A DNA stretch of 26,621 nucleotides from Candidatus Methylomirabilota bacterium (lineage in GTDB: Bacteria > Patescibacteriota > Doudnabacteria > UBA920 > O2-02-FULL-48-8). The translations under genes were made by a program, and so were the position numbers. The notes under the pieces are model-generated. The model saw only the letters and a program-made list of their open reading frames with translations. It was not told the origin of the DNA and did no database searches. Positions within the stretch are counted from its first letter, which is position 1. Every line of letters starts with the position of its first letter. Below are positions 12,907 to 23,723 of the stretch, in pieces. The stretch is from the NCBI GenBank assembly GCA_035495465.1, contig DATJFX010000008.1, forward strand, positions 1-26,621. Reading direction: 5' to 3'.

Positions 12907-14859
12907 TTAGAAATTCTGGGTCTTGACGTTGGATACTGCTGTAGAGTCAACGTTAGTGATTTGCAATTGTACAAATCCGGCAGTTGAGTTGAACTTCACA
13001 GACAAGGTGCAGCGTTCAGTATCACCAGAAGTGATAGTAAACGATGCAGGTGAACCAGTAGCAGTCATGTCTACGCAACTTACGATACCATCGGTACCGC
13101 CAGATTGTGTAGCACCTGTTAAGGTCCAGTTGATATCACCTGCGCCAGTGGCTGCAGTGCTTTGGTCTTCTTTGATAGTTACATCATCGCTGCCGATGGC
13201 TGTTACGTCAAAAGTAAGACTGATGGTTCCATCAACGCTGTTTGAAGCGTCTTCAGCTGTGAAGTGGTCGGATACAAATTGTACTCCGGCACCTGTGCTG
13301 ATGAATGTTTGTGCATTACCAGCGGCTGAACCATCGACATCGCTGTCGAGGAAGGTATCACCATTGTCATCAACCAAGCTATCACTGAAGTCAGCCCAAT
13401 CAACGGTCAAACTATCACCTTCGGTGAAGTTGTCGATATCGTTGATAGTAGCGTATACACGGTAGGTGCTGGTTGAATCAGCATCAACAGTTTCGTCAGT
13501 ATCCAAGTTGAAGGTAAGGGTACCTGTGTCTCCATCTGCAATGCTTGGAGCATCAGCAGTTGCTAAGGTAGTTGAACCTTTCTTCAATTGGAATTCAGAA
13601 GCTATAGAATCAGAAGTGTCTCCAACAGGGCTTAGATCAAAGTCAACTGTATCGAAGGTCATTGAAGAACCTACGGTTTTGACTTTGAATTCGAGCAACA
13701 AGACATTCTTGGTGGTCGAGGTGTCGGATACTTCTACTGTGTTGGTGTCTGGGTTCGAAGAACCGCGAGAAACCGTTACAGTAACATCACCCTGATCTGC
13801 GATAGTTTCAAAGTGGAATGAGCTATCTGGATCAGTTGTATCGGTGATGATAGCACCCTGAGCATCCATAAATCGGATGCTTGGAGCATCAATGTTCCAA
13901 GTGTTGTTGGAAGCACCGAGGTCTAAGCTGTCGATGTTGGATAGGGCGTTAACAGTAACATAGAAGGTTTCTTTGTTACCTGATCCTTCGCGAACGATAG
14001 CATCGCTATCAAGAGAAATGCTCTTGGAATAGGTTGTACCATCTTTGGTGAAGTCTGAGGCATCTGCAGAACCAACTTTGTTAGAACCTTCGTAAACAGA
14101 AACTGAATCAACATAGTGATCAAGTCTGTTTGAACCATCTGAATCAGTTTGCTGCAATGATACCTTTACGCTCTTTACTGCGATATCAGAATCAGAAGCT
14201 TCAACTTTGAAGCCCAAGACTTTGACATTGCTGGCGCCTTCTGCAACTGAGGTTTCCACATCAGTTGAAGTTGAGGTAACAGTTGCATCACCTGCTCCGC
14301 CGTTCAAAGTGGTGGAACCGGAACTAGAACCAGTAGTACATGCTACGGTCTTAGGGGCTACCATTGAATGAGGGATAGAGCTGGAAGATGTGCTTGCTGT
14401 AATGTTTGCACCGACTGGAAGATCAGCAAAAGTGTTTGCTGGAGCTTCTTTGACGTTTGCAAAGATAAATCCGAGGTCAGTGAAAACTTGACCTGAGACG
14501 AATGGGCGCTTTTCACCACCGACTACTAAGTAGACCAATGGATCTGATGGACCCTTAAGAAGGGTGCCTTCGCCGTAAACCATGACTGGACCGACTGGCA
14601 AAGCGATGTCTTCAGAAGAAGCGGCAACAACTTGCAAGAAGTTGTAACCATTTGTGGTGAAGACGGCTTCGGACGTGAAACCACGTCGGGAATTGTTGGT
14701 GATTAACCAAACAGTGCCACCAGAGAGGACCAAACAACCATCAGAATGAACTGCAGCTGAAGCTACGAGTGGAAGAGCAGCGATGCTGCCGGCCCAAACG
14801 ATTGTAGAAGCGGCTAAGCCGATTGCTACTGCTTTGCGTGCTTTAGAAGATAATTGCAT
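12907..14859 (-). CDS. Secreted acidic surface/S-layer-like protein (650 aa)
   Basis: Sec signal peptide ending ...ASA/AVH. Two ~58-aa N-terminal repeats, then an Asp/Ser/Thr-rich beta-rich body. Has an SD (AGGAG), its own promoter and its own terminator. Confidence 0.7.
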   Translation of the reverse strand: MQLSSKARKAVAIGLAASTIVWAGSIAALPLVASAAVHSDGCLVLSGGTVWLITNNSRRGFTSEAVFTTNGYNFLQVVAASSEDIALPVGPVMVYGEGTLLKGPSDPLVYLVVGGEKRPFVSGQVFTDLGFIFANVKEAPANTFADLPVGANITASTSSSSIPHSMVAPKTVACTTGSSSGSTTLNGGAGDATVTSTSTDVETSVAEGASNVKVLGFKVEASDSDIAVKSVKVSLQQTDSDGSNRLDHYVDSVSVYEGSNKVGSADASDFTKDGTTYSKSISLDSDAIVREGSGNKETFYVTVNALSNIDSLDLGASNNTWNIDAPSIRFMDAQGAIITDTTDPDSSFHFETIADQGDVTVTVSRGSSNPDTNTVEVSDTSTTKNVLLLEFKVKTVGSSMTFDTVDFDLSPVGDTSDSIASEFQLKKGSTTLATADAPSIADGDTGTLTFNLDTDETVDADSTSTYRVYATINDIDNFTEGDSLTVDWADFSDSLVDDNGDTFLDSDVDGSAAGNAQTFISTGAGVQFVSDHFTAEDASNSVDGTISLTFDVTAIGSDDVTIKEDQSTAATGAGDINWTLTGATQSGGTDGIVSCVDMTATGSPASFTITSGDTERCTLSVKFNSTAGFVQLQITNVDSTAVSNVKTQNF

Positions 14860-15334: not shown

Positions 15335-15408
15335 GCGGGATTTGTATAATGGTAGTACGAGACCCTTCCAAGGTCTAGGCACCGGTCCGATTCCGGTATC
15401 CCGCTCCA
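15335..15408 (+). tRNA. tRNA-Gly(TCC)
   Basis: GCGGGAT/ATCCCGC acceptor stem, AGACC-CTTCCAA-GGTCT anticodon arm, ACCGG/CCGGT T stem, encoded CCA. Confidence 0.95.
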
Positions 15409-15536
15409 AAAAAAACGTCACTAAAAGAACTTAAATATTATCCACAGGTAAATTGATAGGCGTGGATAGTTAGATATTTTTATCAACACTATTGTGAATA
15501 TCGGCCTTTTTCTATATACTTACCTGGTTGCGACGA

Positions 15537-15610
15537 CGGGGTGTCGTATACCGGTAGTACGTCTGCTTTGGGAGCAGATAGACTGGGTTCAATTCCCAGC
15601 ACCCCGACCA
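15537..15610 (+). tRNA. tRNA-Pro(TGG)
   Basis: CGGGGTG/CACCCCG acceptor stem, TCTGC-TTTGGGA-GCAGA anticodon arm, CTGGG-TTCAATT-CCCAG T arm, encoded CCA. Confidence 0.96.
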
Positions 15611-15650
15611 AGAAGAAACTTTAACTATTAACTTGTAATTTACAACTCTA

Positions 15651-15851
15651 ATGGCAGTCCCTAAAAAACATAAGACAAGGTCAGGCAGAAATCAACGCAG
15701 ATCCCACGATCACCTGAAAGCATCGAGCCTTTCTGTATGTAAAAATTGTAATTTCCCTGTTCGTCCTCATGAAGTTTGCCAAAACTGCGGTTTTTACAAA
15801 GGCCGGCAAGTGATAAAAATGAAGAACCCGAAATCCAAAGCCAGGAAGTAA
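15651..15851 (+). CDS. rpmF: 50S ribosomal protein bL32 (zinc-ribbon form)
   Basis: MAVPKKHKTRSGRNQRRSH...CKNC...PHEVCQNCGFYKGRQV. Confidence 0.96.
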   Translation: MAVPKKHKTRSGRNQRRSHDHLKASSLSVCKNCNFPVRPHEVCQNCGFYKGRQVIKMKNPKSKARK

Positions 15852-15878
15852 AAATTAGAATTAAATTTAAAACTTTCC

Positions 15879-16346
15879 ATGGCAAATCGGCATTTGTCCA
15901 GAACAGTTGCGATGCAATCCCTCTATGAGTGGGACTTTAATGATCGCCATGGCGCCTTGCTGACAGTGGCCGAACGCAATGTCAAACAGTTTGCGCCGGG
16001 ATTGGAAGACACGGGATTTATCTTTGATTTGATTAAAGGCGTAAATAAAAACCTCCCGGAAATCGATAAAGTCATAGTCCAAACCGCCCCGGAATGGCCA
16101 TTGGATCAGATCACTGTGATTGATCGCAATATTTTGCGCCTGGGCATTTATGAACTGCTATTTGCGAAAAAAGTTCCGCCGAAAGTCGCGATCAATGAGG
16201 CGGTGGAACTCGGCAAAGCTTTTGGCGGCGAATCCAGCGGAAAATTTGTAAATGGTGTACTCGGCACTTTATATAAACAACTACCCGAGGAAGAACGTTT
16301 AGCTGGAGAGACCCCACAAGCTGAAAAAACTTCTAAGCAAGAATAA
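15879..16346 (+). CDS. nusB: Transcription antitermination factor NusB
   Basis: [43 protein letters not shown]...FVNGVLG. Confidence 0.96.
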
Positions 16347-16361
16347 ATTTTAATAACCTAC

Positions 16362-16637
16362 ATGAATAAACAAGAACTAATTGACGCACTGAGCTTAAAG
16401 CTCAATCTGGGTAAAACTGAAGCCGAAAACACACTCCATGGCTTTGTGGAAGTAATCACTGAAACCTTAAAAGCCGGTCAGGAAGTAAACATCTCTGGAT
16501 TCGGTTCTTTCGTAGTCACTCCCCGTTCCGCTAGGATGGGCGTAAATCCCCAAAACCCTACGGAAAAAATCCAAATCCCAGCCACCAAAGTTCCGAAATT
16601 CCGCGCCGGTAAAAACCTAAAAGAAGCAGTTAGATAA
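16362..16637 (+). CDS. hup: DNA-binding protein HU
   Basis: MNKQELI...GFGSF...R.GVNPQ...IPATKVPKFRAGKNLKEAV. Confidence 0.95.
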   Translation: MNKQELIDALSLKLNLGKTEAENTLHGFVEVITETLKAGQEVNISGFGSFVVTPRSARMGVNPQNPTEKIQIPATKVPKFRAGKNLKEAVR

Positions 16638-16644
16638 TCTTATT

Positions 16645-16676
16645 TGCCACTTTTCTTTCTAGAAAGAAAAGTGGCA
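16645..16676. repeat. 32-bp perfect palindrome downstream of hup
   Basis: TGCCACTTTTCTTTCT|AGAAAGAAAAGTGGCA. Confidence 0.9.
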
Positions 16677-16689
16677 GGAAAAGAAAGTC

Positions 16690-16777
16690 GGAAATTTGCC
16701 GGACTCGGAACGTGTTACGCTTGTCGACAAGGACCAATCTAACCGGATTTTAGTCGCTCGGACAGCGGCAAATTTCC
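16690..16777. other. Element D: stem-enclosed structured intergenic segment (candidate ncRNA)
   Basis: 12-bp perfect stem GGAAATTTGCCG/CGGCAAATTTCC enclosing 64 nt that contain small hairpins, followed by a terminator. Confidence 0.45.
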
Positions 16778-16784
16778 ATAATTT

Positions 16785-16807
16785 AAAACCCCTATTATAG
16801 GGGTTTT
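16785..16807. terminator. Bidirectional intrinsic terminator
   Basis: AAAACCCCTAT-T-ATAGGGGTTTT, between the convergent hup block and the small-gene island. Confidence 0.75.
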
Positions 16808-16820
16808 ATTTCTTATATTT

Positions 16821-16925
16821 AGGCGAAGGCAGTTGCTTGGAGGAGATTTGCGAGGCCCTTCCAATGGCCGAGCACATAGTCCGCCCGAAGCGGACGTCTC
16901 CGAGAAGCAGCTGCCTTCGCCTTTT
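16821..16925 (+). ncRNA. Structured element A1 (candidate novel ~102-nt ncRNA, copy 1)
   Basis: Homologous to 20168-20271 with at least 7 compensatory base-pair changes. Has a U.G pair and tandem G.A pairs on the + strand and a 3' U tract. Confidence 0.7.
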
Positions 16926-17016
16926 CTCTCAACTGTCGGCGAACAGGAGATTCAATCATTTTTTTCAAAATTATTGAATTCGCCGACAGATGAGAGAGCG
17001 GGAATGACAGTTGCTG

Positions 17017-17268
17017 TCACTCCCGCTTATGAAACGCCGCGACGTTATTTACGTTTTGGCGTTCTTGGGCAGGGGCCTGATGGGCCCTTTCTTCTGCCCG
17101 TAACCGGCGCTGATGCCGGCGAATTTGGCGCCGATAGCTCAACACAATTGGCACACCCATCGCCAGCCCAAAGAGAACAGTGGCACTCGCCTCCAATGTC
17201 TTCTGAGGGCTCATATAGAACCCCAAGCACCAGAGGAGGGCGACAACCAAGGTCAGCCATGATTTCAT
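17017..17268 (-). CDS. Small two-TM membrane protein with basic C-terminal tail (83 aa)
   Basis: MKSWLTLVVALLWCLGF... with SD GGGAG and ATGA coupling to the upstream gene. The longer ORF-track start (17460) was rejected. Confidence 0.75.
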   Translation of the reverse strand: MKSWLTLVVALLWCLGFYMSPQKTLEASATVLFGLAMGVPIVLSYRRQIRRHQRRLRAEERAHQAPAQERQNVNNVAAFHKRE

Positions 17269-17471
17269 GCCACTCCCCTGTGGATGGCTGTGAACACCGC
17301 CCAGATGACGCCTCCGCCGAAAATCATGGCGGTGACGCAAACCTGCCAGATGAGTTCGTCCAGGTTTTCGGACAGCCACTTGGCGGCCGGCCCGTCCTTG
17401 AGACGGATCACGACCGCGAACTTGCTTGACTCGATCTTTTTTTCCACCACGGGCGTCCAAACTACGGTCAT
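17265..17471 (-). CDS. Small hypothetical protein with C-terminal TM helix (68 aa)
   Basis: SD GAGGTG 5 nt before the ATG; hydrophobic C-terminus. Confidence 0.75.
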   Translation of the reverse strand: MTVVWTPVVEKKIESSKFAVVIRLKDGPAAKWLSENLDELIWQVCVTAMIFGGGVIWAVFTAIHRGVA

Positions 17472-17541
17472 AATATCACCTCATTCACCCTCGCCTTTCG
17501 GCTGGGCGATACACGAGTTGACGACGACTATATCCGACTTG

Positions 17542-17631
17542 CCCGTCTCTTAACTCGAACCCTAACATTATGTAAACATTTGTTCAAGCTAACAGACGGG
17601 AGGAGGACAACTTCTTGCAAGTCATCCTCCC
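17542..17631 (-). other. Element C: two abutting hairpins between gene modules, carrying the shared leader motif
   Basis: GGGAGGATGAC/GTCCTCCTCCC, then CCCGTCT..TTAGCTTGAAC/GTTCGAGTTAA..AGACGGG. The G.U pairs favour the minus strand. Confidence 0.55.
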
Positions 17632-17638
17632 TATCTTT

Positions 17639-17887
17639 TCATTGTGCTCCTCCTTGTGAAGCATGCTCTGGTTTCTTGCCCGTGATCCGCAACGTGGGAC
17701 CTTTCGGTCCGATCATCATCACGCGCGCTTCTCCGCGCCGCAGAAACTGGATCGCGAGCGTGTCGGGATAGGGATATCCCAGATCTTCGACGATCCGATC
17801 CCGGATCTGCTCCTTCGACTCCGAACCGTTGATGATGGCCAGGACCCGATCTTGCACGATTGCGACGGAGAGATCTCTGTACTTCAT
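17639..17887 (-). CDS. Small hypothetical protein (82 aa)
   Basis: ATG overlaps the upstream stop, with GGAGG upstream and protein-like composition. Confidence 0.75.
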   Translation of the reverse strand: MKYRDLSVAIVQDRVLAIINGSESKEQIRDRIVEDLGYPYPDTLAIQFLRRGEARVMMIGPKGPTLRITGKKPEHASQGGAQ

Positions 17888-18075
17888 TTTTCCTCCAGGA
17901 TGGCGAGTTCCTGACGAAACTCCTCACACACATAGATTAGAATCCCGAGTTCGTCCGCCTGCTGTTCCACCGTGAGCAGATCGGAATGACCCAACTTCTC
18001 GATGGCCAGCTGCAACGCCGCGATCTTCCTCTTGAGCAATGCTTTCCTGTATTCTCGCCTTTTTCTTCCAAACAT
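17884..18075 (-). CDS. Small helical/coiled-coil hypothetical protein (63 aa)
   Basis: SD GGAGGTG 4 nt before the ATG; heptad-like Leu/Ile pattern. Confidence 0.75.
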   Translation of the reverse strand: MFGRKRREYRKALLKRKIAALQLAIEKLGHSDLLTVEQQADELGILIYVCEEFRQELAILEEK

Positions 18076-18110
18076 TCTTCACCTCCGCCTTTCGGCTGAA
18101 AAAAAGAACT

Positions 18111-18401
18111 TCACTTGGCGCAGTCAGGAATTGAGCCGCCGTCTTCGTAACGGCGTTCAATCTCACTGGCACAGATCCCAAATGGAATCAGAATTTCTTG
18201 GACCTTATCCAGATCCAGGAAACCTGAAGCCTTGGCTTGCTCGCGCAGAGCCTGAGTGGCATGGTCAGCGCGATCTGAATTGCGCTGTCTCGCCTGGCTA
18301 AACACGCGATCCCGCGATCCGCTACGCTGGACCAGCAGGATTAATATCATCAAGGTCCCCAATCCGAGGACCGCCAGGATCTTTCTTCTATTTTCACTCA
18401 T
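18111..18401 (-). CDS. Small bitopic membrane protein (96 aa)
   Basis: RRK followed by hydrophobic ILAVLGLGTLMILILLV; SD GGAGG. Confidence 0.75.
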   Translation of the reverse strand: MSENRRKILAVLGLGTLMILILLVQRSGSRDRVFSQARQRNSDRADHATQALREQAKASGFLDLDKVQEILIPFGICASEIERRYEDGGSIPDCAK

Positions 18402-18420
18402 CGATCCTCCGATCGAGTTT

Positions 18421-18529
18421 AAGGGAACATTCCCTTCCTAAATATTCTATCCTTAGAAAACTTAGGAAGGGAGGGAGTTTTAAGGGTTTACCAATCAAGG
18501 TGTCCAATAAAACTCTCCATCTTCTACTT
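18421..18529 (+). repeat. Structured repeat B1 (core 18465-18529)
   Basis: 65-nt core matches 19367-19431 at 64/65 positions; the 5' stem is conserved in structure. Confidence 0.9.
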
Positions 18530-18536
18530 ACTCCTC

Positions 18537-18803
18537 CTACTTCTTCCAATCCTTGCACCCACCCGGCACGACCGCCATAGAGGTTCCCTGATAGATCATG
18601 CTGGTGTAGATCAGGTTCCCCGAAAGCATGTCACAGGTGGCGACAATCGACCCAGTGCCCATGGTCGGAACCTCGTATCTATAGACCTTGGGCGCCGACT
18701 GCTCGACATACGCTTGTGTGTCGGTCGGCGCAGTACTGCAGGCCGACGTTAATCCAAGACATATTGCGATGCCACTAACCTTTTTCCAATTCCAACGGAA
18801 CAT
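18537..18803 (-). CDS. Small predicted lipoprotein (88 aa)
   Basis: Basic N-terminus, hydrophobic stretch, lipobox-like LTSA|C; SD GGAGGTG. Confidence 0.7.
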   Translation of the reverse strand: MFRWNWKKVSGIAICLGLTSACSTAPTDTQAYVEQSAPKVYRYEVPTMGTGSIVATCDMLSGNLIYTSMIYQGTSMAVVPGGCKDWKK

Positions 18804-18843
18804 CTCTCACCTCCGCGCTTCCGCGCTGGAAAAAGCAGAAAAT

Positions 18844-19029
18844 CTACTGAAAGAACCGCATGAACCAGCTGGAGATCGCTCCCCATTTGGCCCACACAAT
18901 CGCCGAGACGAACCCCAGCATTCCGAGGTTCATCATCACGCCCACAGCAAGGACGAATGACTGAGTGTCCTCACGCAGATACTTCTGCAACGGGCTCAAT
19001 CCCGTTTCGTTCGGATCAGGGATGTGCAT
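18844..19029 (-). CDS. Small single-TM protein (~61 aa)
   Basis: SD AAGGAG; hydrophobic FVLAVGVMMNLGMLGFVSAIVW. The start could be 19029 or 19032. Confidence 0.75.
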   Translation of the reverse strand: MHIPDPNETGLSPLQKYLREDTQSFVLAVGVMMNLGMLGFVSAIVWAKWGAISSWFMRFFQ

Positions 19030-19065
19030 CATCAACTCCTTGCGCCTAGGCGCTGGAAAAGGAAA

Positions 19066-19299
19066 TTAGTGCCTGCCGCGGCCACCGGGCCAGAGTGGCC
19101 CGAGCATCCGTCGGAAGGCATAGATGACGATCCCCAGCAACAACGCCGGGCCGATGATCGACGAGACAAAGTTCTCGATCTTACTGAGAACCATGTAACG
19201 GAAATCCTCGGACAGAACCATCATCGCCACGAGGACGATGAGGACCGTGCGTAGTGCCCGCTGCGGCGAACCGAAGAAAAACTCAATCCAAGCCTGCAT
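19066..19299 (-). CDS. Small two-TM membrane protein (77 aa)
   Basis: SD AAGGAGG 4 nt before the ATG; two hydrophobic helices, each flanked by Arg. Confidence 0.8.
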   Translation of the reverse strand: MQAWIEFFFGSPQRALRTVLIVLVAMMVLSEDFRYMVLSKIENFVSSIIGPALLLGIVIYAFRRMLGPLWPGGRGRH

Positions 19300-19319
19300 G
19301 AGGCCTCCTTAGGTATATC

Positions 19320-19431
19320 AGGGAAACCATTTCCCTTCCGATAAGATCTAAATTTTAAATCTCATTGGAAGGGAGGGAGTTTTAAGGATTTACCAATCAA
19401 GGTGTCCAATAAAACTCTCCATCTTCTACTT
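19320..19431 (+). repeat. Structured repeat B2 (core 19367-19431)
   Basis: Second copy of B1, in the same position immediately after a module's last stop codon. Confidence 0.9.
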
Positions 19432-19625
19432 TACTTCCTCCTGGTAATCTCTCTTGCTCTTGGCGGTGGCACCACGAACTCCACTTCGAGACCGAGTCCA
19501 GTGGCGTGGCTGACAATCAGCTTGCCGATCGCCTCATCGGATGTACGACCAGCCTCCCACTTGCCCTTTTGATTTGCCAAGCAGGCATGCCAGTCATCTG
19601 AGCGCTTGGTCACAACGATTTTCAT
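19431..19625 (-). CDS. Small protein with possible HicB/UPF0150-like fold (64 aa)
   Basis: SD GGAGGTG. WHACLANQKGKWEAGRTSDEAIGKL resembles the HicB pattern y.a....G....G.T.eEA..nl. Confidence 0.5.
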   Translation of the reverse strand: MKIVVTKRSDDWHACLANQKGKWEAGRTSDEAIGKLIVSHATGLGLEVEFVVPPPRAREITRRK

Positions 19626-19653
19626 CTTACACCTCCGCCAAGTGTTGGAACTC

Positions 19654-19791
19654 TTACTTCTGGAAAATGCTTCGGCACTCGTAGAATGCCTTCCAGCATT
19701 CCTTGCCGATCCAGGCGGACACCGGGTTCCGTGGGCGAAAAATCATCAACCACACCATAACCCCGATAAACACGATCTGGAAATAAGCCAT
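19654..19791 (-). CDS. 45-aa hydrophobic peptide (below the ORF-track cutoff)
   Basis: Manual translation MAYFQIVFIGVMVWLMIFRPRNPVSAWIGKECWKAFYECRSIFQK*. SD GAGGTG; fills the gap between its neighbours. Confidence 0.75.
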   Translation of the reverse strand: MAYFQIVFIGVMVWLMIFRPRNPVSAWIGKECWKAFYECRSIFQK

Positions 19792-19828
19792 CTTTCACCT
19801 CTTGCCCATTGGGCTGAAAACGAACTTG

Positions 19829-20023
19829 TTACTTCGCCAACTTGTCGAGAGTCCGGGAGTCGATCTCGATGGGCTGAATCCAGATCTCACGTCTGACCCC
19901 GGCCGCTTTGTGAAGCTGCTGGGTAGTCGGCAGAAGCGCCTCGGCGACGTCTTGATGCAGGTACACGGTCGAGCTCGCCAACTCTTGAAGATTGTTGGCA
20001 TAAACCATAACGTAACCTTTCAT
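19829..20023 (-). CDS. Small hypothetical protein (64 aa), first gene of the island
   Basis: SD AAGGAG before the ATG at 20023 (MKGYVMVY...). Confidence 0.7.
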   Translation of the reverse strand: MKGYVMVYANNLQELASSTVYLHQDVAEALLPTTQQLHKAAGVRREIWIQPIEIDSRTLDKLAK

Positions 20024-20167
20024 GACTATCTCCTTGAAAACTGTGGGAAGCAACTTGCTTCCACAACCCTGAACACTTAGGTAAACTTTAGAGCAACAAT
20101 ATTTCTCTGTGTTACAACATTAAGTATTCAGAATAGTAGAAACAATTTTTCACTTTCTCTTCTCTTT

Positions 20168-20271
20168 AGGTGAGGCCTGCTGCTTCGAAGAGAATTGCGA
20201 GGACCTTCCAATGTCCGAGCTCTTAGTCGCCCTCAGGCGACGTCTCTGAGAAGCAGCAGGCCGAACCTTTT
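20168..20271 (+). ncRNA. Structured element A2 (candidate novel ncRNA, copy 2)
   Basis: Covarying homolog of A1, with three tandem G.A motifs on the + strand and a 3' U tract. Confidence 0.7.
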
Positions 20272-20472
20272 CCTTCCACAATTCTGGAAGCTTATCCAAC
20301 TGCTGGGGCGCAATTATATAATTTCGCCGCTTAGTCGGACAACCCTCCCAGAACTCTGGAAACAAAATAGCTCCCTTTCAGGAGCTATAGGTAAAATGTA
20401 TGTGAAATTTGCTACGTGCCCATTCGGTCCTGAACGAATAGGTACGACTATTCATTTTTTAAACAACTCATA

Positions 20473-20501
20473 AGTATACTCCTAAAAACCGATCTTGTCA
20501 A
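20473..20501 (-). promoter_or_regulatory. Sigma70-type promoter P1 driving the small-gene island
   Basis: TTGACA-N17-TATACT. Confidence 0.85.
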
Positions 20502-20511
20502 TAGATAACCC

Positions 20512-20540
20512 AAAAAAGAGGCTTAGGTTAGCCTCTTTTT
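20512..20540 (-). terminator. Intrinsic terminator of groES-groEL-GxxExxY
   Basis: AAAAAGAGGCT-AACCTA-AGCCTCTTTTTT. Confidence 0.85.
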
Positions 20541-20580
20541 GCCGCTAATATACACGAATACTGAACGAATTTACACTAAT
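20541..20580. repeat. Left imperfect inverted repeat of the GxxExxY element
   Basis: GCCGC-TAAT-nn-ACAC-GAAT-ACTGAA-CGAAT-nn-ACAC-TAAT, matching the reverse complement of 20983-21028. Confidence 0.75.
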
Positions 20581-20978
20581 TTGAAAGGTTTTCGATTATT
20601 GGTAAAAATAACTCTTTTTACCATAAGTTGAGAAGAAGCAAAATTTATTAGATAAGCTAGCTCGTATTCACTATTTCGTAAATAATCATAAAGACGTTTC
20701 AGCTCCTCATTTGATACAAATTTTTCAGCCTTTAGCTCAACTATAATTTTATCGTCAACAATAAAGTCAGGCCGATAAAGCCCGACTTTTTGTCCATCTT
20801 TTGGAGAATAAATATTTACACTTGGCTCTTTTACGAACTGAATTTTACGACGCCCGAATTCTTGAACCAACGCAGTTTGATATAATTTTTCTTTATGCCC
20901 CGGACCGAAATCTTTCCGCACTTCAATAGCCGCCCCATGAATCAAATACGATAATTCCTTATGTAATAATTCAGCCAT
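20571..20978 (-). CDS. GxxExxY protein (PD-(D/E)XK-like putative nuclease)
   Basis: FGPGHKEKLY (GxxExxY), RPDFIVDDKIIVELKA, YL...LINF. Confidence 0.93.
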   Translation of the reverse strand: MAELLHKELSYLIHGAAIEVRKDFGPGHKEKLYQTALVQEFGRRKIQFVKEPSVNIYSPKDGQKVGLYRPDFIVDDKIIVELKAEKFVSNEELKRLYDYLRNSEYELAYLINFASSQLMVKRVIFTNNRKPFKLV

Positions 20979-23110: not shown

Positions 23111-23470
23111 CTACCACCGAGGTTCTCGGCGATAGGTTTGAGCGATCTGGTCGCTCATCTCCGCAACAATCGCCGTGGCGGCGATATCGCGAAGAATCGT
23201 CCGGCCTCCGTCATACTTACTGACGTAGGCCCCACAGTGCACCTCATAGAGCGAGGTACGACTGCGGTCCGACCGAACATTCGCCAAACCACTGGCGATG
23301 ATCAGTCCCAGCGTCTGTGGGCGCAACTTCCGCACACGTCGATGAACAACGTTTGCGGCTTGCTCCCAAAGATACTGAGCCGCAGGCTCGGTGAAGCCAT
23401 GCTCACGGATGAGATCCGCGGCAATGCGCTGCACGAGCTTCGGACGAGACGACGGGTTGGTGTTGGTCAT
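23111..23470 (-). CDS. Hypothetical protein (119 aa), GC-rich orphan
   Basis: SD AAGGAG, own promoter and terminator; no family recognised. Confidence 0.75.
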   Translation of the reverse strand: MTNTNPSSRPKLVQRIAADLIREHGFTEPAAQYLWEQAANVVHRRVRKLRPQTLGLIIASGLANVRSDRSRTSLYEVHCGAYVSKYDGGRTILRDIAATAIVAEMSDQIAQTYRREPRW

Positions 23471-23694: not shown

Positions 23695-23723
23695 AGTATA
23701 AATTAAAAAGCCTTGGTTGTCAA
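23695..23723 (-). promoter_or_regulatory. Sigma70-type promoter P2 (twin of P1)
   Basis: TTGACA-N17-TATACT. The -35 box lies inside the AAGCCTTG/CAAGGCTT-T5 terminator hairpin of the upstream gene. Confidence 0.85.

Follow-up and report, generated by a model that had tools for sequence, protein, structure and literature searches.

A variable array of small orphan genes framed by conserved hairpins behind groEL in Candidatus Doudnabacteria

The array and its genes

Directly behind groEL in the genome of an uncultured member of Candidatus Doudnabacteria (candidate phyla radiation, CPR; 562 kb, 42% GC) lies a 3.4-kb segment with eleven small open reading frames (ORFs) of 45-96 aa, all on one strand and with structured non-coding stretches between them. 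It falls between 16.8 and 20.5 kb of the window, by which we mean the entire 26,621-nt stretch analysed (contig DATJFX010000008.1). An initial annotation had described here one strong promoter, P1, pointing into a cassette-like series of small genes and structured elements labelled A, B and C, and we recovered both the promoter and the order: on the minus strand a leader is followed by A2, g1-g3 (64, 45 and 64 aa), B2, g4-g6 (77, 63 and 88 aa), B1, g7-g9 (96, 63 and 82 aa), C, g10-g11 (68 and 83 aa), A1 and a terminator. Its raised GC content was likewise recovered (0.50-0.57 against about 0.40 in the flanks), as were six products with transmembrane (TM)-like segments (g2, g4, g5, g7, g10 and g11) and one with a lipobox; about half of the eleven genes encode membrane, anchored or lipoprotein-type products. 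The genes and the signals for their expression are as follows, with Shine-Dalgarno (SD) sites and GC content at third codon positions (GC3) where they were noted.

20512-20540, minus: terminator-like hairpin with U-run, closing the groESL/PDDEXK_3 unit directly upstream of P1 (read from the sequence)
20473-20501, minus: promoter P1, sigma-70-type, TTGACA-17-TATACT (11/12 consensus match)
20367-20388, minus: small leader hairpin and then a U-run, attenuator- or terminator-like, just 5' of hairpin D1 (81% identical to the equivalent place in the related genome G007)
19829-20023, minus: g1, 64 aa, soluble orphan (SD AAGGAG; GC3 0.72; no family match)
19654-19791, minus: g2, 45 aa, N-terminal TM helix, two Cys (SD GAGGTGA; GC3 0.76)
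19431-19625, minus: g3, 64 aa, soluble (the G002 and G014 arrays encode weak homologues)
19066-19299, minus: g4, 77 aa, with a basic C-terminus and two TM helices (the G005 and G014 arrays encode homologues)
18844-19035, minus: g5, 63 aa, or 61 aa if the second ATG is used, TM helix
18537-18803, minus: g6, 88 aa, lipobox-type signal peptide (..LTSAC), four Cys
18111-18401, minus: g7, 96 aa, N-terminal signal-anchor (no tblastn match in phages)
17884-18075, minus: g8, 63 aa, basic and resembling a coiled coil (ATGA overlap between its stop and the start of g9)
17639-17887, minus: g9, 82 aa, soluble, small rare family (AlphaFold2 model of two helices and three strands)
17265-17471, minus: g10, 68 aa, C-terminal TM helix
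17017-17268, minus: g11, 83 aa, membrane protein with basic tail ..HKRE, last array gene (homologue in G007)
16784-16808: bidirectional intrinsic terminator, common to the array and the convergent hup gene

The coding status of these ORFs is supported by the periodicity of their GC content, by their SD sites and by protein-level homologues of g3, g4, g9 and g11. GC at the first, second and third codon positions across the eleven ORFs is 0.55, 0.41 and 0.68, a pattern that supports their being coding sequences, and the contrast with host genes (GC3 0.38-0.48) marks their composition as foreign. The SD sites are strong and differ from those of neighbouring genes, as the initial annotation had stated: at least 5 nt of complementarity precede 9 of the 11 genes (10 if g5 uses its second ATG) as against 7 of 22 flanking ORFs, and seven array genes have matches of 6-8 nt whereas the flanks have a single 6-nt match. 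Typically the site reads GGAGGTGA and stands 4-6 nt ahead of the ATG. A JGI assembly calls the second array gene as a 58-aa frame starting with GTG (window 19622-19798, minus); this frame is wrong, having a GC3 of 0.33 versus 0.76 for the overlapping 45-aa frame (19791-19654).

The array gene order was re-found on a 14.9-kb contig from another JGI sample, and a 1347-nt contig from a third sample is 100% identical to the locus, which indicates that the locus is not an assembly chimera. Moreover, g11 appears among the gene calls of L105, an independent contig. As the sole retrievable independent contig is 100% identical, no sequence variation was found for an estimate of nonsynonymous relative to synonymous substitution. 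The position of P1 behind groEL is kept across the family, and the region 20533-20266 is conserved at the DNA level in more than 10 family genomes. Promoter-like sites on the plus strand were found only at 20570-20609, upstream of P1.

Array-specific hairpins

The elements that actually punctuate the array are the hairpins D, B and T, which are both array-specific and family-wide. They are listed below together with the intergenic element C, with scores from covariance model R2 where it applies and with z, the folding energy relative to shuffled sequences.

20262-20369, minus: D1, first copy of extended hairpin D (78.5 bits; -47.9 kcal/mol, z -6.4)
20047-20149, minus: D2, subtype with TTCTGAAT...TTCAG arms (77 bits; z -3.7)
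19329-19431, minus: B2, two-hairpin module (z -4.2; 98% identical to B1 over 65 nt)
18428-18529, minus: B1, second copy of the two-hairpin module (z -3.6)
17480-17635, minus: C, intergenic, two strong hairpins and a mini-hairpin ahead of the g10 SD (z -5.8)
16925-16997, minus: T, terminal hairpin between g11 and A1, closing the array (z -8.1)

The initial annotation had rightly seen the leader as rich in hairpins, but did not recognise them as two copies of one element, D1 and D2, which bracket A2 in the window. D is an extended hairpin of about 100 nt, for which the family alignment shows compensatory changes in 11 of 15 modelled pairs and many U-G/G-U pairs. Its covariance model detects only the locus downstream of groEL, with 1-7 copies per genome in all 17 of 17 high-quality genomes. 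Half of the copies end 15-50 nt upstream of an ORF start, D2 itself ending 24 nt ahead of the g1 start codon. Copies of the D2 subtype occur in six other genera, and D subtypes look orthologous between genera rather than recently copied. We rejected the interpretation of D as a CIRCE element or a promoter because the alignment has no consistent boxes.

The B module pairs SD-like purine arms with pyrimidine arms resembling the anti-SD sequence. It was found again in at least 7 relatives, with seven compensated pairs and with 23 G-U versus 0 A-C pairs; its second hairpin recurs both in relatives and on the metagenomic contig L106. T is present in one copy per array at 13 of 19 loci, with compensatory changes in 10 of 17 pairs and 22 G-U against 4 A-C pairs. 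Among 185,579 species genomes the T pattern is restricted to Doudnabacteria; it also matches 17 metagenome contigs, which carry no homologue of the proteins of the window, and has no match in viral contigs. The compensatory changes, taken together with the G-U pairs on the sense strand, indicate that D, B and T fold in the mRNA.

All the structured elements fold far better than shuffled sequences (z of -3.5 to about -8), and D1, D2 and T form extended stems of 20-35 bp. At the gathering score of Rfam 15 the window yields two tRNAs only, with no match for A, B, C, D or T; relaxing the threshold to E values up to 5 for 16600-20600 adds chance miRNA-type matches far under threshold, and no hammerhead ribozyme was found here. 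The earlier proposal of an organised locus, cassette-like in layout and coding for small membrane or exported proteins, with conserved structured RNA where modules meet, is supported; its choice of boundary elements stands only in part. T was missed altogether; C, which had been counted among the boundary elements, is present once, with no further copy in this genome or in the arrays of relatives; and A proved to be a repeat of a different kind, which is treated below.

Turnover of the genes in the family

Twelve genomes in which groEL and hup lie on one contig share the order groES-groEL, 4-10 kb of intervening DNA and rpmF-nusB-hup, all on one strand. In full, the order among relatives is groEL-array-(LTD protein)-rpmF-nusB-hup, and the stretch between groEL and rpmF is rich in GC and crowded with ORFs of 35-200 aa that have SD sites. 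The locus in our window is this genome's version of one found throughout the family, and P1 with a D hairpin at its 5' end and T at its 3' end are conserved bounds. Full-text searches of the literature gave no description of the locus.

Unlike the genes, the non-coding parts are conserved at the DNA level across genera. Only g3, g4 and g11 have homologues in the arrays of other genera, and these are weak; that of g11 is the last array gene of G007 (tblastn E 5e-6). Two pairs of genomes from the same genus illustrate the contrast: their D and T elements are 78-84% identical and their groEL DNA 74-77%, while their arrays have no ORF in common. One same-genus pair has arrays of 2.4 and 7.9 kb.

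The initial annotation had anticipated that gene content would vary while hup and groEL stayed syntenic. The varying content and the position of groEL were borne out, but hup departs from this, its block being inverted here with respect to the relatives. There the tRNA/rpmF-nusB-hup block lies downstream of the array on the groEL strand (L079-L083); here (15335-16637) it is inverted and abuts A1. The inversion identifies the 3' boundary of the array as a rearrangement point. The LTD surface-protein gene that follows the arrays of relatives is missing at this position, and a gene for a 650-aa surface protein (12907-14859) lies on the other side of the inverted block.

Searches with the array proteins

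When 20 of the larger ORFs from the arrays of relatives were compared with family libraries, the single match within an array was to DUF3228; the others (a NusB fragment and two LTD proteins) belonged to conserved genes flanking the arrays. Of the proteins of the present array, g4 has only weak Pfam matches (T4SS_pilin, E 0.06) and matches only itself among 5.8 billion proteins. Eight of ten proteins looked up in a protein collection were present, each in a cluster without a member outside the locus; g2 and g5 are absent from it under these start codons. Paralogues were found neither elsewhere in this genome nor among the array proteins themselves.

An exhaustive HMMER search with g9 recovered two true homologues among 1.8 billion representatives, and candidate homologues of the TPR type were dismissed as compositional artefacts. 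The AlphaFold2 model of g9 is confident, with a predicted local distance difference test (pLDDT) score of 84.5. Its two relatives, on L106 (ENA ERZ4903055, 1170 nt) and on a 6315-nt JGI contig (sample 3300078620), both belong to other arrays in which 4-14 small orphan genes all point the same way. Upstream of the relative on L106 there is a B-type hairpin, a U-tract, a GC-closed mini-hairpin and an SD site; the same stereotyped initiation module stands upstream of g5, g6, g8 and g10 here.

Element A, a genome- and family-wide repeat

Element A, whose two copies in the window are 77-80% identical, had been named as a module boundary. With a covariance model (R1) built from eight copies we found 11 copies on nine contigs of this genome (G000).

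20167-20268, minus: A2, abutting D1 (109.8 bits; z -5.8)
16820-16922, minus: A1, second local copy, after T (110.6 bits; z -6.3)
Other contigs of G000 (contig:position): C67:12963, C54:464, C63:5734, C6:2830, C40:8480, C47:9452, C26:1643, C24:6597 and C24:7254

Elsewhere in the family 1-11 copies are present in 10-11 of 24 other genomes, mostly between housekeeping genes (e.g. tuf|A|rpsJ), and none was found in 121 genomes from other families of the class. Since most copies lie outside arrays, genome- and family-wide, A is a separate element and not a boundary device of the array. The D-then-A abutment seen in D1/A2 recurs in G010.

A is a repeat of about 103 nt (longer variants reach 128-130 nt) that folds into a three-way junction, in which two internal loops of the form GCUCGG...CCUCGC are conserved. 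Across 48 distinct copies 96% of the cells are paired and compensatory changes are seen at 30 of 33 pairs; the shuffle and slide controls all fall far lower. In 38 of 46 cases A runs in the direction of the upstream gene, and it often begins 0-10 nt past the stop codon; about eight copies begin 3-9 nt after a tRNA gene, mostly tRNA-Pro, and some of these tRNA-adjacent positions are orthologous between genera. Wobble pairs are nearly absent, and the rare mispairs on the gene-sense strand are more often A-C (25) than G-U (8). This signature is the opposite of that of D, B and T and favours the antisense strand. Of the 11 copies present here, 4 lie directly beside GC-rich patches, versus 5.6% expected.

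Several known repeat classes invite comparison. The initial annotation had allowed for the repeats being ordinary genome-wide repetitive extragenic palindromic (REP) elements; A is in part of this kind, being scattered through intergenic DNA in numerous copies whose hairpin structure is conserved, as are bacterial interspersed mosaic elements (BIMEs) and miniature inverted-repeat transposable elements, whereas D, B and T are specific to the arrays. Like REP/BIME, enterobacterial repetitive intergenic consensus (ERIC) and Correia-type repeats, A is about 100 nt long, dispersed in operon spacers, co-oriented with transcription and rich in compensatory changes. It differs from them in its three-way junction with two conserved internal loops, in the position of many copies at sites orthologous across genera, frequently 3-9 nt beyond a tRNA gene, in the near absence of wobble pairs, and in having neither an Rfam family nor a REP-associated tyrosine transposase (RAYT) or other transposase that tracks with it. 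Y1_Tnp is absent from A-rich genomes, and tyrosine recombinases, the Y1 transposase and the PDDEXK_3 nuclease show no phyletic correlation with A or the hairpins. Further, A has no sequence-conserved terminal repeats, its outer stem being the most variable part, and several copies are orthologous between genera. A might conceivably be a new class of structured element that acts on the antisense or DNA strand beside tRNA and mRNA 3' ends. We rejected the interpretation of A1 and A2 as att sites: both are complete, internally compensated structures.

Neighbouring genes and other GC-rich patches

Between groEL and P1 the window encodes a PDDEXK_3 (GxxExxY-type) nuclease (20571-20978, minus). G006 has PDDEXK_3 at the same place with an internal TGA stop, and in other relatives just about 330 nt separate groEL from the first D. 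Upstream of groES lies a second GC-rich orphan gene (23111-23470, minus; 119 aa) with the strong SD AAGGAG. The boxes of its promoter (23695-23723) are identical to those of P1 (TTGACA-17-TATACT), it has its own terminator, and its leader has a short motif in common with D2.

Many further short GC-rich patches (0.52-0.64) with SD-led small orphan ORFs are scattered through G000: C56:4350-5430, C18:4550-5680, C26:1750-2470, C49:7750-8580, C63:5836-6580 (contig end), C54:1-460 (contig end), C45:1-750 and C24:1-700. Several are at contig ends and some adjoin A copies; C54 and C63 may carry opposite ends of one further patch flanked by A.

A probable punctuated operon and competing explanations

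We favour, with a probability of roughly 0.6, an interpretation of the locus as a hypervariable single operon of small, largely envelope proteins with punctuation at the RNA level. P1 would drive one long polycistronic mRNA, in which the long, imperfect double-stranded hairpins would serve as RNase III-type processing sites. Cleavage of this kind would leave hairpins that protect 3' ends and would split the transcript into modules, each separately stable and translated, an arrangement comparable to the early operons of T7-like phages. The B and C hairpins, with their pairing of SD-like and anti-SD-like tracts, may additionally tune translation. The products probably function at the cell envelope, where they would take part in host contact or in excluding phages, under diversifying turnover or selection, with new genes arriving from a GC-rich foreign pool and presumably entering by recombination at the conserved hairpins or in the stretches between them. 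A gene for RNase III is present in 22 of 24 family genomes. The resemblance to the early region of T7-like phages (R0.3-R1.3) extends to the strong promoter, the many small genes with strong ribosome-binding sites, and the long imperfect hairpins between gene groups, which if cleaved would give stable 3' hairpins. The present locus differs in being chromosomal and family-wide, in lacking phage genes, in the unrelated sequences of its hairpins and in that cleavage is here a predicted step.

Several points weigh against this interpretation. Both the single long transcript and its cleavage at the hairpins are inferred from sequence features, and a second promoter-like site within D1 (20342-20313) makes more than one transcript possible. 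RNase III was not found in this genome assembly, which is 82% complete. Neither Pfam nor PHROGs, PADLOC or NCBIfam returned a significant match for any of the eleven proteins, to which no function can be assigned; the last three libraries likewise gave no sign of a defence system, and a fold search of the PDB with the g9 model gave no match with a template-modelling score above 0.4. Finally, genes of similar size may have diverged rapidly in place instead of having been replaced.

The same layout might be read as an integron-like platform of DNA cassettes without a classical integrase, with D, B, T and perhaps A as recombination sites folded from single-stranded DNA and with units shuffled behind P1. 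As in sedentary chromosomal integrons and clusters of attC sites lacking integron-integrases (CALINs), one strong resident promoter faces unidirectional small orphan ORFs of foreign composition, structure-conserved imperfect palindromes of about 100 nt lie between ORFs, and the content turns over completely between related species while the repeats are retained; the g9 homologue on L106 also stands behind a B-type hairpin in a neighbourhood different from the one here. However, the locus has no intI or attI, and pairs of attC R''/R' boxes (RYYYAAC/GTTRRRY) number 0 on either strand of 16781-20560 (0.6 expected in shuffles), with none at the ends of D, B, T or A. No integrase adjoins the array: this genome's lone Phage_integrase-domain gene is on contig C61, and most family genomes have a single conserved copy of an Xer-like tyrosine recombinase far from groEL, while the Y1 transposase and PDDEXK_3 do not track with the elements. 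D stands 5' of ORFs, whereas attC sites lie 3' of cassette ORFs; there are at least three kinds of repeat; the abundance of G-U pairs on the sense strand only points to RNA rather than DNA folding; and the D subtypes appear orthologous between genera as opposed to recently copied, in a locus fixed behind groEL in one CPR family. We consider this reading improbable. Similarly doubtful is an exchange platform for gene cassettes independent of integron integrases, in which D, B and T would be mRNA punctuation and at the same time homology or structure anchors for capturing and swapping small foreign genes behind a promoter that stays in place.

Two further explanations appear very unlikely. The high GC content, strong SD sites and small membrane proteins, including the holin-like g4 and g11 with two TM segments each, together with the direct A repeats on both sides and the excess of A copies at GC-rich patches, could suggest a decayed prophage, satellite or integrated plasmid (e.g. 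inovirus-like) inserted between A copies as attachment sites. Yet the locus occupies the same place in every good family genome with its own conserved boundaries, P1/D and T, while A is found mainly away from arrays, at orthologous sites, and A1 and A2 are each complete rather than att hybrids. The initial annotation had reported that integrase, replicase, capsid and Zot ATPase genes are missing, and indeed no hallmark gene for replication, integration or structure was found in the locus, Pfam and PHROG searches being negative. Nor do its proteins match known prophage or plasmid modules, a possibility that had been raised at the outset: there is no DNA-level match among 50,697 records of phages or 72,556 of plasmids, and protein-level comparison with such collections, which covered g7 for the phage records and g4 for the viral contigs, gave no match either; the viral contigs have neither a T element nor a g4 relative. 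The other explanation, which the initial annotation had offered, is a stack of units resembling toxin-antitoxin systems, whether of type I (hydrophobic toxins of small size, countered by structured-RNA antitoxins) or as small type II pairs. Several products of 45-83 aa with one or two TM helices do resemble type I toxins, and the pairing of SD-like with anti-SD-like tracts in B and C recalls SD sequestration. This idea found no support: the SD sites of the array genes are strong, exposed and 4-6 nt from the start codon, there are no antisense promoter-like sites inside the gene array, PADLOC, Pfam and NCBIfam return no toxin-antitoxin match, and hairpins that are kept while the adjoining genes change are the reverse of a co-evolving toxin-antitoxin pair.

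Implications

New here are the relation of the array to A, the contrast in strand signature between A and D, B and T, the differences in SD sites and GC3, the rare family of g9 together with the fold predicted for it, the taxonomic restriction of T and the local rearrangement. A, D, B and T represent four undescribed families of structured RNA or DNA with strong covariation, and they offer precise markers with which such arrays can be retrieved from metagenomes. If the hairpins mediate gene turnover, they would constitute a second route to cassette arrays, unrelated to integrons; if they do not, the locus would still offer a clean natural case, from an uncultured lineage, of a polycistronic operon punctuated by RNA.

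Although the genomes of CPR bacteria are tiny and strongly streamlined, all good Doudnabacteria genomes reserve 2-10 kb directly behind groEL for a rapidly changing complement of small orphan proteins, framed by hairpins that are conserved better than the adjoining essential genes. The retention of so variable an array along with better-conserved hairpins points to a selected function for both the variability and the RNA elements, and for the former host attachment or immunity to phage or competitors suggests itself. Were the array indeed an exchange platform, these ultra-small episymbionts would gain a dedicated and rapidly renewable repertoire of envelope proteins.

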